Positions 16,842 through 21,438 of a stretch of 64,000 nucleotides of DNA are shown piece by piece. The translations under genes were made by a program, and so were the position numbers. Under the pieces are notes generated by a model. It saw only the letters and a list, made by a program, of their open reading frames with translations, was not told the DNA's origin and did not search any database. Source of the stretch: Promethearchaeota archaeon (GTDB lineage: Archaea > Asgardarchaeota > Lokiarchaeia > Sigyniarchaeales > SOKP01); contig JBHLOY010000010.1 of the NCBI GenBank assembly GCA_048939995.1, positions 64,001 through 128,000 on the forward strand. The letters run 5' to 3'. Within the stretch, counting starts at the first letter, position 1; each line of letters starts with the position of its first letter.

Positions 16842-18020
16842 TTGAATGATTTCAAAATTGAAGATTCAATTATTTTGATTGATACTTCTAGATCGATGTT
16901 AAGAAGAGACTTTAAACCAAATCGATTAATTGCAGCCTTGAGTGCCGTAAAGGCTTTTATCCAATCAAAATTTGAAATTGACCCCAAAGATAGAATAGCA
17001 CTTGTATCCTTTGGAGAGAGTGCCAAAAAGTTATGTCCTATTACTTATGAAGAGGATAACCTATTTGAAGCTTTCAAGAAGATCCAAATTTCTGGTAAAG
17101 GGTTATTACATGAAGGTATAGCATTTTGTTTGCAACTGTTAGTTGAGGAAATGAGAAAAGTAGGAGGAAAAACCAACAGAATTTTTATAGTTTCAGATAA
17201 TAAGATTCTTTATACTGAAAAATTGCATAAAATTGTGGAGATTGCCAAAGGTTTAGGAATTTATATAGATTCCTGCCAATTAGGGCAATCTGAAGGATAT
17301 TCAGGAAGTATTCTTAAACAGATTGCTAAAAACACTGGAGGTCAATACGGTTTTTTTAATAATTCTAAAGCATTAATTAATGCCGGAAATTCATTTGCTT
17401 CAAAAAAAGAGTTTAAAGAGTCAATCGATTATTTTTCACCTATAAAAGATAAAAAAGAAACTCCATTAATGGGTGAAATTGCTTTGGATTTACGAAGGCC
17501 TAATCTCTTAGATATTCGTTTAATGATGAGTGATAATGACAAATTTGGTGAAAAGTGTCAGATCTGCCATTCTGTAAAATCACCTATTACTGATGCTGAT
17601 TTTTACTCTGAAGGAAGATATTGTCCTTCATGTGATCGCCCAATGCATTTATCATGTGCAGCAATGTGGGCAAAAAAAACTGAAAAGAAGGAGCGGATCT
17701 TTAGATGTCCCTTTTGCTTTTTTCTTTTAGAATTACCCTCTTCATTTTCAAAATTAATTGAAGATAAAGAAGAAAGTCTTCCTAAAGTAAGATTAGTTAA
17801 TGAAGGAGAAGAAAAAACAACAAAAATGATTGTCTTTCCCAATGAAAATATCCATGAAATTAATGAATCATGTTCCTATTGTCACAGCATATTTTTAGGA
17901 GAATATAAAGTTTATCAATGCGAAAAATGTGGAGCTTATTATCATGAACCTTGTTTAGAAAAAGTCACAAAGGAACTCAGGGGATGTAGGAACTGTGGCG
18001 CTCAAATTATTAACTATTAA
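16842..18020 (+). CDS. vWA plus two RING-like Zn fingers; TFIIH p44/Ssl1-like
   Basis: IDTSRSM..DFKPNRL MIDAS-type vWA, TGGQY, C/H-rich finger CQIC..CPSC..HLSC..CPFC, and C-terminal CSYC..CEKC..HEPC..CRNC. Confidence 0.75.
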   Translation: MNDFKIEDSIILIDTSRSMLRRDFKPNRLIAALSAVKAFIQSKFEIDPKDRIALVSFGESAKKLCPITYEEDNLFEAFKKIQISGKGLLHEGIAFCLQLLVEEMRKVGGKTNRIFIVSDNKILYTEKLHKIVEIAKGLGIYIDSCQLGQSEGYSGSILKQIAKNTGGQYGFFNNSKALINAGNSFASKKEFKESIDYFSPIKDKKETPLMGEIALDLRRPNLLDIRLMMSDNDKFGEKCQICHSVKSPITDADFYSEGRYCPSCDRPMHLSCAAMWAKKTEKKERIFRCPFCFFLLELPSSFSKLIEDKEESLPKVRLVNEGEEKTTKMIVFPNENIHEINESCSYCHSIFLGEYKVYQCEKCGAYYHEPCLEKVTKELRGCRNCGAQIINY

Positions 18021-18101: not shown

Positions 18102-20191
18102 GTGATTAATTTAAGCAAAGCTCATAAACATAAGTGGATCATTACTAGTGCTTGGCCTTATGTGAACGCAAATATTTCTTGAGAGCTTTAAGAATTAGCG
18201 TACTTCCACATCTAGGCAACTTAATAGGAAGCACATTATCAGCAGATGTATTTGCTCGCTTTCTACGAATGAAGGGAGATGAAGTATTATTTGTATCTGG
18301 TTCAGATATGCATGGAACTCCCGTAGCAGTGGAAGCTAAAAAAACAGGTGTTTCAGTAGAAGAATTAGCTATAAAAAATCACAATAAAATTAAGGAATTG
18401 CATAAAAAATGGAAAATTTCATTTGATAATTACACTCAAACGCATAATCCTACACATATCGAATTTGTGCAGAAATTTTATTTAGATATCCAAAAAAACG
18501 GATATATCTTAGAAAAAGATATAGAATCCCTTTATTGTGAAAAAGATAACCTTTTTCTTCCTGATAGGTTTGTAGAGGGGATTTGCCCTCACTGTGGAGC
18601 TGAGAAAGCGAGAGGGGATCAATGTGACAATTGCCAGAAGTTATTGACACCTCTCGAGCTTAAAGAATCGTACTGTTCGATATGTGGCGCAAAACCTATA
18701 CTTCGAAAAACTAAACATTGGTATATGGATTTTCCTAGGCTTCAAAATCAATTGAAGAAATTAATTGAAAAAAATGAAATTATCCCTCAAAATGCTCGGC
18801 AAATGTGCTTAAACAGTATCGAGGAAGGTCTTCCTGAAAGAGCCATTACGCGAGATTTAGAATGGGGTATTCCCGCACCGTTTAAAGGAGCTGAAGGAAA
18901 AACGATATATGTATGGTTTGAGGCTGTGTTAGGTTATGTTAGTGCTTGTTTAGAATGGGCTGACAAGCTAAAAAATCAACCAAAAAAATTTGATTACTTT
19001 TGGAAAGATAAAAATACCAAATCGGTTTATTTTATAGGGAAGGATAATATCATCTTCCATTTAATTGTGTTTCCAGGACTCCTAATGGCATATAATGCCG
19101 ATAAAAAGGATTCTGATAAATTAGTTCTTCCATATAACGTCTCTTCTACAGAATGGTTAATGCATGAAAATGAGAAATTTTCAAAATCTAGAGGAATAGG
19201 GATTTGGATTGATGAGGCGTTAGACCTGGCACCATTGGATTATTGGAGATTCAATTTAGTTTATAATCGTCCGGAATCAAGTGATACCTCATTTTTATGG
19301 TCTGAATTTGAAAATAACATTAAGACTTTAAATGATAACATAGGAAATTTCATTCATAGGACATTAACCTTTATTGATAAACAATTCAATAAGATCATTC
19401 CAGAGAAAGTTGAATATGACAAAGTAGATAAGATTTTTGTTGAAAAAATCAATAGAATAGGCGTTGATGTCGGAAAAAGCTTAGATAATTTTAGTTTACG
19501 TAAGGCAATACGAGATGTTGTGAGTTTTGGAAAAGAAGGAAATGTTTATTTAAACGAAAAGGCACCATGGCATTTAATAAAGAAAGATAAAAAAAAAGCG
19601 GGACATGTATTTAATATATGCGCTCAAGCGGTATATGCTTTGGCAGTTCTTTTAAGCCCATTTACTCCTGGGACAGCAAACAAAATTATTTCATTTTTGA
19701 ATGATCCTAAATTATCCGAATCATCTTGGGATAGTATTAATGAAAATGCTGTCAGTGCAGGAGTTAAAATTAAAAGTCCAGAGCCAATTTTTCAAAAATT
19801 AGATATTGAAGAAATAAAGAATAATTTAAATAAAATCAGAGAAGAAAAGCAAAAGGGAGGAAAAATTGAATTGATATCTTATGATTATTTTAAAAAGTTG
19901 GATATTAGAGTCGCAAAAATAGAATCTATTGAGAAGGTACCTAAAGCAGATAAACTATATAAATTAGGAATCGATATTGGGAATGAGAAAAGGACACTCG
20001 TAGCAGGTTTAGCGGAACACTATAAAATAGATGAGCTAATTAATAAAAAAATTATAGTGCTAACAAACTTAGAGCCAAGAAAATTACGAGGAATTCAAAG
20101 TGAAGGAATGCTGCTTGCTGCTGTGGATAATGAAAAGGTATCTATTTTAATACCAGACAAAGAAATTGAGATCGGGGCAAAAGTAGAATAA
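18102..20191 (+). CDS. metG: Methionyl-tRNA synthetase, two exons: join(18102..18171,18204..20191), 685 aa after splicing
   Basis: Exon 1 (GTG 18102) [23 protein letters not shown]; exon 2 [18 protein letters not shown], Zn knuckles, YVWFEA, IGKDN, KFSKS, C-terminal tRNA-binding OB domain. The exons are in different frames, separated by 32 nt. The start codon is less certain than the junction. Confidence 0.95.
18172..18203 (+). other. Putative 32-nt bulge-helix-bulge (BHB) mRNA intron in metG
   Basis: Central helix ACGC 18166-69 / GCGT 18198-201; 3-nt bulges AAA 18170-72 and ACT 18202-04; intron stem 18173-83 / 18187-97; exon stem 18155-65 / 18205-17; contains in-frame TGA 18180-82. Confidence 0.88.
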
Positions 20192-20193
20192 AT

Positions 20194-21438
20194 CTATAAT
20201 TTTAAAGAAAATACTGGATTTAAGCGGGCTATAACTTCTCCTAGATCTAGTTGTAGCATTTTTAAGATTACGTCTCTTCCTCGATATTCAAATTGTAATT
20301 CTTTAACATTCTTAATTATTTTTAATTTATTACGATCTTTTACTAACTCACACACAAAATATCTCTGGTCATTGTATTCCAATATTTTTTTCACATTTTG
20401 AATATCTGGCAAATTATAGCCTCCTCCATGTGCTAAAATATCTACATTTCTCAATAATTCCAATAATTCCAATTTTACCGCTCTTTTTAAAAAATTATTA
20501 TTTTTTAAGGTTATCTCTGAAAGATTTTTCTGTCCCATAAATAGATAACAAGCCATATCTGCTCTAAGAGCGGTAGGAAAAACATTGGAGGTGATATACT
20601 TACAATTGAGATCAGTACAATTACTCCCTAAATACATATTATTATAATCTTTTAAAAACTGGTGTGGTTGATTGCAAATTATTTGAAAATCATTACCAAA
20701 TAGATGATTTGCAATGAGTAATCTTTTTCTGCTTGAAAAATTCAGAGCTTTTTTATTAAAATCTAAGTACTCATCAGCCTCAGAATCAATAAGGATATAT
20801 TGTTTTCCAAAAATGGTATTCTCTTCTAATGCATGTTCTTTTAATGTTTTAGATTGATCAATATACAAACCAATTCCATGTTTATCATCTCTGAATTCTG
20901 GAGCAGAACCATGTATAAAAAAAGTATATGGTGGAAAATCAATATCAGTTAGATTTTTAGTTTTAAAACAATTAATGAAATGGTTTGAGATCCCATAGTC
21001 CCAATTAATTAGAATGTCTTTATAATATAATTCTGTGGATTTTATTTCATCAATCTTCTTAATAAGATCATAGGGGTCTGGTAGTTCATATAATCCTCCA
21101 CATAATATACCACAACAATTAGGTTTTATATTTAGAAAAATTAATTTTTCATTTCCAGATCCCCAATTTAATCTACCGCCATATCCGAGACCAGAATTCC
21201 ATCTGAAATTATTTTTTGATATTGTTTCATCTGGAGAGGAGATAAATGCTGCTTTAGGTTCAAACCCATATTTTTCTTGAATAAGTTGAAATTGAGCAAG
21301 TCCATACTTCATATTAGCTCTACATAGTTTTGAAGCGCCATCATTTAAACCAGTTGAAAAAATAAACTTTTCTGCTCTACTTAGTAACTCAACTTTATCC
21401 ATTTGAGATAAATTCTCAGAAATACTAGAGGTCGCCAT
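20194..21438 (-). CDS. Divergent RtcB-family RNA ligase
   Basis: RtcB-like motifs in order: SPD..G.GYGG, NCCG, SNHF, IHGS, PHQ, AHGGG, E....YR, VIARLNP...K. Confidence 0.75.
   Translation of the reverse strand: MATSSISENLSQMDKVELLSRAEKFIFSTGLNDGASKLCRANMKYGLAQFQLIQEKYGFEPKAAFISSPDETISKNNFRWNSGLGYGGRLNWGSGNEKLIFLNIKPNCCGILCGGLYELPDPYDLIKKIDEIKSTELYYKDILINWDYGISNHFINCFKTKNLTDIDFPPYTFFIHGSAPEFRDDKHGIGLYIDQSKTLKEHALEENTIFGKQYILIDSEADEYLDFNKKALNFSSRKRLLIANHLFGNDFQIICNQPHQFLKDYNNMYLGSNCTDLNCKYITSNVFPTALRADMACYLFMGQKNLSEITLKNNNFLKRAVKLELLELLRNVDILAHGGGYNLPDIQNVKKILEYNDQRYFVCELVKDRNKLKIIKNVKELQFEYRGRDVILKMLQLDLGEVIARLNPVFSLKL

Follow-up and report, generated by a model that had tools for sequence, protein, structure and literature searches.

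The systems closest to the locus described here are found in archaea and in eukaryotes. The pre-mRNA of cbf5, which encodes a pseudouridine synthase, reportedly carries a bulge-helix-bulge (BHB) intron in Desulfurococcales and Sulfolobales (Watanabe 2002; Yoshinari 2006; Yokobori 2009, PMC2738675). At such motifs, each bulge is cut by the archaeal splicing endonuclease EndA behind its second base. The HAC1/XBP1 mRNA is cut by Ire1 at two stem-loops and joined by a tRNA ligase (RtcB in animals), and serves as a regulated switch. Within archaea, splicing has been confirmed for no coding gene but cbf5, with other cases being predicted (Yokobori 2009, PMC2738675). A BHB intron of Haloferax volcanii, located in the 5' UTR of HVO_1309, is cut by EndA, also in vitro, and has been detected in circular form (Schwarz 2020, PMC7714728).

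In Asgard archaea, introns have been described in tRNA genes, mainly in Jordiarchaeia and Atabeyarchaeia (Valentin-Alvarado 2024, PMC11291895; bioRxiv 10.64898/2026.10.13.758758). The preprint (bioRxiv 10.64898/2026.10.13.758758) makes no mention of mRNA, states that splicing is demonstrated for none of the inserts newly described in it, and names the arrival of BHB introns as an open problem. A heteromeric, loop-bearing EndA is also present in Asgard archaea, where it has been linked to the cutting of relaxed motifs (Kaneta 2018, PMC5829648). No report of an intron in an Asgard coding gene or mRNA, or in an archaeal aminoacyl-tRNA synthetase, was found in the literature, mostly openly accessible (i.e., mostly without subscription journals), in agreement with an earlier reading made from the sequence alone (hereafter, the sequence-only reading), which knew of no such case.

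The gene studied here, metG, encodes methionyl-tRNA synthetase (MetRS) and is interrupted by 32 nt. Judging from the sequence, it is highly likely that this insert is a small BHB intron spliced from the mRNA by EndA, with the exons joined by RtcB, and the metG mRNA very probably must be cut and rejoined before the essential MetRS is made.

Layout and fold of the interrupted metG gene

Positions refer to the window, i.e., the whole stretch of 64,000 nucleotides that was analyzed. The relatives of its source genome are Promethearchaeota (Lokiarchaeia). From GTG 18102 on the plus strand, 26 codons are read before the stop TGA 18180-82, and a different frame is used by the PHLGN part of MetRS. Excising 18172-18203 yields a single open frame encoding a MetRS of 685 residues, 12 of which are read across the junction. 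Exon 1 (18102..18171, plus strand) comprises the GTG start and a total of 23 codons plus one base; it encodes the first Rossmann-fold strand and ends in WPYVNA. The putative BHB intron (18172..18203, plus strand) shifts the frame and holds the TGA of the exon-1 frame. Exon 2 (18204..20191, plus strand) is intact, running from its HIGH-type motif (HLGN) through to a tRNA-binding domain at the C-terminus, with matches to PF09334 (462 bits), PF19303, and PF01588. The GTG start is shared with intron-bearing relatives and with the intronless sister clade (P0005, P0010), and the exon-1 strand aligns to P. abyssi MetRS 1RQG from residue 3 (via the intronless relative P0009). The gene is present in one copy in this Lokiarchaeia genome, which is 98% complete.

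The BHB motif, including the exon-exon stem formed by 18155-65 with 18205-17, spans 18155..18217 of the plus strand, on which all its parts lie. The 5' strand of the central helix is in exon 1 (18166..18169), and forms four Watson-Crick pairs with the 3' strand in the intron (18198..18201). By the EndA rule, the first 3-nt bulge (18170..18172) would be cut after 18171; for the second (18202..18204), a cut after 18203 is predicted, as in the register test presented below. Both bulges, which are on opposite strands, begin with A. The intron hairpin (18173..18197) pairs 18173-83 with 18187-97 by means of eight Watson-Crick pairs and two G-U pairs, with one mismatch (10/11 paired), and contains TGA 18180-82.

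The exact BHB conformer has a free energy of -16.9 kcal/mol against a minimum of -17.4 kcal/mol (i.e., 0.5 above the minimum), the pair probabilities of the central helix are 0.83-0.98, and the 63-nt segment presents a folding z of -2.65. The two exon pairs beside the second bulge, GA/UC, are weak, with probabilities of 0.25 and 0.49, and the second-bulge side is therefore expected to breathe between the canonical and the relaxed form. When 200,000 shuffled 32-nt inserts were placed at the metG site, with any of seven registers accepted, 118 yielded a 4-bp helix and a stem of at least 7/8 pairs, and 31 of the 200,000 yielded the exon pairs as well. A self-splicing group I or II intron was considered and rejected, given that the insert has only 32 nt against a catalytic core of hundreds of bases, and that no Rfam match was found over it at E up to 1. 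Mimicry of tRNA-Met was likewise rejected, because the spliced loop contains no Met anticodon.

The source genome encodes two EndA subunits and an intact RtcB. The alpha subunit of EndA is closest to that of Aeropyrum pernix (3P1Z, E 5e-37), to which its loop insert and catalytic Y/H/K residues align. The metG inserts are relaxed motifs, and their cutting would depend on the broad range of substrates attributed to EndA of the loop-bearing type (PMC5829648), which weighs somewhat against the splice reading. The insert presents the features of an archaeal BHB intron, apart from a clear covariation within metG: a central helix with its bulges, flanking helices, a product restored by excision, and the enzymes in the host. 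In the proposed mechanism, the folded metG transcript would present a 4-bp helix flanked by two 3-nt bulges, an (alpha-beta)2 splicing endonuclease would cut after 18171 and 18203, RtcB would join the exons, and the ribosome would then read the full 685-residue MetRS. The excised 32-mer would probably circularize, as archaeal introns do.

The coordinates, frames, helix, bulges, and stems claimed in the sequence-only reading were all verified on the sequence. Its claim that removing 32 nt restores the spacing of MetRS is borne out by the 685-residue frame, whose motif spacing is that of 129 intronless orthologues, and the second intact metG that would have spoken for a decaying copy was looked for in the source genome and is absent.

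Two genes flank metG. Directly upstream, in conserved synteny, is that of a vWA-domain protein (16842-18020, plus strand) with C-terminal zinc fingers (Ssl1/Tfb4-like and RING/PHD-like matches). Tail to tail with metG, a 414-residue protein without a Pfam match has its gene on the minus strand (20194-21438), and resembles a divergent RtcB. The top structural match of its model (pLDDT 63) is 2EPG, with Z 8.4, an rmsd of 4.5, and 232 aligned residues, the next match having Z 5.0; 2EPG is TTHA1785, an RtcB-family protein. RtcB is the label on 13% of the members of its Atlas cluster, and residues C109, N152-H153, H176, H259, and H337 are invariant, while the likeness to RtcB was not detected by Pfam, hhalign, or Foldseek. 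This neighbor adjoins metG in 45 loci, whether the intron is present or not, and a canonical RtcB exists besides. Hence, the idea that it is a dedicated ligase finds no support, because it flanks intronless metG too. As for the tRNA genes of the source genome (98% complete), ARAGORN finds only 20, many with introns at odd positions, and further ones may be unassembled or masked by multiple introns.

Relatives, gains, and the position of the junction

Among 161 genomes of the class, an uninterrupted, gap-free metG motif is present in 129, and an insert between WPY and PHLG in six, source genome included. In the other five insert-bearing genomes metG is single and its long downstream frame is intact. 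An insert is also borne by three further assemblies (NCBI, Logan, JGI), and since related inserts occur at the same site in these independent assemblies, an assembly slip is ruled out as its source. Fifteen class genomes matching neither pattern were searched, of which four are intronless, one has the site at a contig end, and ten are without a match to the query. At E 1e-30, nothing matching this MetRS type was found in G036 and G037 (98-99% complete), G116, and G031, where the gene may be unassembled or the MetRS different. A pattern search of 400 genomes across the phylum yielded no metG insert beyond the six known; its 15 other matches, assessed solely by length and sequence, occur at the control rate. 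Among the 14 matches of a DNA pattern scan in metagenome contigs, none is in metG. A record titled Candidatus Nanopelagicaceae bacterium (L057) bears a Lokiarchaeia-type metG together with the neighbor gene, and is probably a misbinned contig.

The inserts fall into two families, one of 32 nt (source genome and kin) and one of 31 nt (another genus), with downstream metG frames that are intact and 84-91% identical within each family. The predicted junctions are one base apart, that of the 31-nt family being cut further along, and no sequence likeness beyond that of shuffles was found between the two families. In a free tree (quick search only), the 32-nt family forms one well-supported clade nested among intronless genes, and the 31-nt family a separate clade. 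Under the AU test, a single clade uniting all intron-bearing MetRS is not rejected (p = 0.13). Notwithstanding this value, the simplest reading is that the two introns are probably separate gains, given that their sequences are unrelated and their junctions one base apart, and that the free tree separates them. The distribution also suggests a recent gain of the 32-nt intron, confined to one small clade of its genus. In the intronless sister clade of this family (L002, L003, L029), ASGP replaces VNAI at the intron site, which is possibly a trace of imprecise loss, or of independent change.

The metG site would be open to invasion because the Y-V and P-H codons on either side can pair, and a second, unrelated intron would have landed one base away in another genus. 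Both pairing codons are present in 7/42 intronless genes and in all intron-bearing ones. Pairing-capable flanking codons may thus explain the two arrivals, and selection after insertion would look alike. As to a donor, there is no significant copy of the intron elsewhere in the source genome, no Rfam match, and no likeness across families. The intron most likely persists through efficient removal, and not through a job done: its patchy, recent distribution suggests a tolerated insert rather than a regulatory device.

The BHB register is the only one that yields a common peptide in all members, namely NAI (56/199 homologues) or NAV (11/199), and the spliced junction of the source genome carries the commonest motif, NAI. 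With the upstream register, the peptide is NAL in the source genome (0/199) and NAK in two 31-nt members (1/199); with the downstream register, the 32-nt family presents NAN or NAD (1 and 0 of 199). The codons beside the site are also frozen. In the 32-nt family, 8/9 synonymous codons are identical there against 34% gene-wide, a level reached by 0/336 comparison windows, and in the 31-nt family the values are 8/10, 34%, and 0/351. This freezing is absent from three intronless control sets.

The structure is kept as well. None of the 10 exon pairs varies within the 32-nt family, in which 93.8% of cells are paired against 31-40% with slid partners, and the intron hairpin is kept in relatives with 92.5% of cells paired. 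Each 32-nt relative has one mismatch, located at an end of the central helix, and the 31-nt family does not have the exon pairs right beside the second bulge. Aligning Lokiarchaeia metG genes, as the sequence-only reading had proposed, shows intron presence and absence (6 against 129 of 161) and does not show the covariation, there being three one-sided changes and zero two-sided compensatory changes among four distinct 32-nt inserts (four sequences only). A search of short proteins, covering assembled and called genes only, did not find the full-length spliced product of the clade. The central claim of that reading, an EndA-spliced intron in an essential gene, is supported by the single copy, the folds of relatives, the register, the frozen codons, the enzymes, and the false N-termini in public annotation.

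These data also bear on whether the insert might be removed from the RNA by another nuclease and ligase (e.g., the divergent RtcB-fold neighbor), or with cuts shifted by one or two bases, which is very unlikely. The imperfect central helices of relatives and the RtcB-fold gene tail to tail with metG would fit other enzymes, yet a 4-bp helix with 3-nt bulges is the substrate geometry of EndA and recurs in nine inserts of the genome, and the neighbor is found next to metG in intronless relatives too. As for shifted cuts, in relatives a cut one or two bases upstream also yields a common peptide, whereas in the source genome the upstream registers give a peptide that is absent from the 199 homologues.

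BHB inserts in other coding genes

The sequence-only reading had further proposed scanning the genome for BHB motifs at other frameshifted genes. At least eight more BHB inserts are present in coding genes of the source genome, and all nine have 30-33 nt and a full 4-bp helix. The eight hosts are EF-1alpha, purA, fwdA, a PurM-like gene, a GHMP kinase, a CaiB-type transferase, and two unnamed genes. On the minus strand, the inserts are at 167345 of contig C11, 109926 of C7, 377452 of C17, and 175447 of C23; on the plus strand, they are at 379867 of C28, 64707 of C38, 20329 of C7, and 23476 of C17. Most host genes are single-copy, and most excisions restore a recognizable motif, for instance the P-loop in EF-1alpha and in PurA. 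In a genome scan for BHB motifs joining coding stretches, fwdA and the PurM-like gene ranked above metG, and a looser scan added the GHMP kinase and two other genes. The scans missed EF-1alpha, purA, and the CaiB-type gene and most low-ranking candidates are false, so the count is no census. No shared intron sequence pointing to a donor was found among the inserts of the source genome, whose cbf5 is uninterrupted at the motif checked.

The PurM-like insert occurs in 24 genomes, with 29 or 30 nt and an identical spliced junction. Two-sided changes are present in the fwdA and PurM-like inserts, the one in the central helix of fwdA combining a synonymous exon base with an intron base. The EF-1alpha insert is found in 10 genomes with 31, 32, or 33 nt and its helix kept. 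Given that these lengths run through all three phases at one site of an essential gene, the insert must be removed, as a ribosome could hardly cope with it. A BHB-shaped insert of 30 nt with an in-frame TAA also interrupts leuS, inside GYD|SFG, in G032 and G035 (L083, L084). These two genomes belong to the second genus and have both metG and leuS interrupted; the leuS insert is absent from G033, G136, G140, and the source genome.

The metG insert hence belongs to a class of BHB introns, 29-33 nt long, that interrupt ordinary protein-coding genes in this Lokiarchaeia family. It is likely that tRNA-type splicing is a routine step of gene expression in this family, with repeated gains in essential genes (MetRS twice, LeuRS, EF-1alpha, PurA, and others) where an mRNA hairpin pre-exists, and that translation depends on mRNA splicing. 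Regulated use of such splicing by the cell would be a further step, to which nothing here points.

The varying lengths also weigh on the explanation that the RNA stays unspliced and that the ribosome crosses the insert, either through a programmed frameshift or by skipping the hairpin with its stop. Ribosome hopping occurs in T4 gene 60, and bypass sites are generally laid out as a stop with a hairpin after it. In the source genome alone, no stop closes the -1 frame within the insert, and cbf5 introns were once mistaken for frameshifts (Yokobori 2009, PMC2738675). However, in each of the three other 32-nt variants the insert has stops in both frames, and the 31-nt family would require the opposite shift, because of which this explanation fails. 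Moreover, neither a slippery run nor a conserved pair of take-off and landing codons is visible, a frameshift would insert about 11 residues in a motif with a spacing that does not vary across 129 genomes, and the same-site inserts of EF-1alpha have 31, 32, and 33 nt. Frameshifting or hopping is therefore extremely unlikely.

Removal of the insert from the mRNA remains the preferred reading, and it implies that gene callers place the N-terminus wrongly. A false start at TTG 18179, followed by intron-derived residues (18179..18203, plus strand), is used in P0001 and in the NCBI-annotated relatives P0002 and P0003; the protein called from it has 670 residues and does not include exon 1. In P0008 there is no start at the place of the TTG, and the protein is called from beyond the HIGH-type motif. 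The N-terminus is false or truncated in 7/7 database proteins of the clade, two NCBI entries carrying intron-derived residues, which confirms what had been expected from the sequence alone. Because public annotations give false or truncated N-termini, Asgard gene catalogues under-report intact genes. It is exceedingly improbable that metG works without exon 1 (from the TTG 18179 start, in line with the public calls of 640-670-residue proteins from downstream starts), is a decaying pseudogene, or reflects an assembly error, because exon 1 supplies the catalytic fold with its first strand and is conserved down to its codons, and no second metG stands in for it, while P0008 does not even have that start, and the insert recurs in independent assemblies with the downstream frames intact.

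Comparison with known systems

With an intron in the sole MetRS gene, no protein would be started or made without mRNA splicing. If true, a close prokaryotic relative of eukaryotes relies on mRNA splicing for translation itself, which bears on the view of Asgard protein genes as intron-free. Introns of the metG type are not spliceosomal, and say nothing direct on the origin of the spliceosome. The gene offers a clean test, since any growing cell must hold the spliced junction, and two unrelated introns one base apart beside 129 empty orthologues provide a direct route to studying how BHB introns arrive.

In comparison with the cbf5 intron, that of metG is also a short insert in a coding sequence, with the size of a tRNA intron and BHB or relaxed BHB borders; likewise, its host has a heteromeric, loop-bearing EndA, and it is lineage-specific and overlooked by gene callers. 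It differs in being in the Asgard phylum and in an essential aminoacyl-tRNA synthetase, and in having been gained recently, apparently twice at nearly the same site. Moreover, cbf5 is a single case, whereas this genome has at least nine inserts. Splicing of cbf5 was shown by experiment, whereas that of metG is what we infer. The metG intron would work like that of cbf5 and is not homologous to it, being in Promethearchaeota and not in Desulfurococcales or Sulfolobales.

The Asgard tRNA introns share with the metG case the phylum, BHB borders, many separate recent gains, and the absence of a shared sequence pointing to a donor, although they interrupt tRNA genes and the present ones interrupt coding genes. 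The HVO_1309 intron is also a BHB intron in an mRNA, yet it is in an untranslated leader, where no reading frame is broken. In HAC1/XBP1, as proposed for metG, a short frame-shifting intron is removed without the spliceosome by an endonuclease and a tRNA ligase. There, however, the cuts are made by Ire1 at stem-loops rather than by the tRNA endonuclease at a BHB motif, and the event is a regulated switch. The chemistry is known, and what is new is its setting, in an Asgard host, in an essential synthetase and in many coding genes of one genome, with gains that recur.
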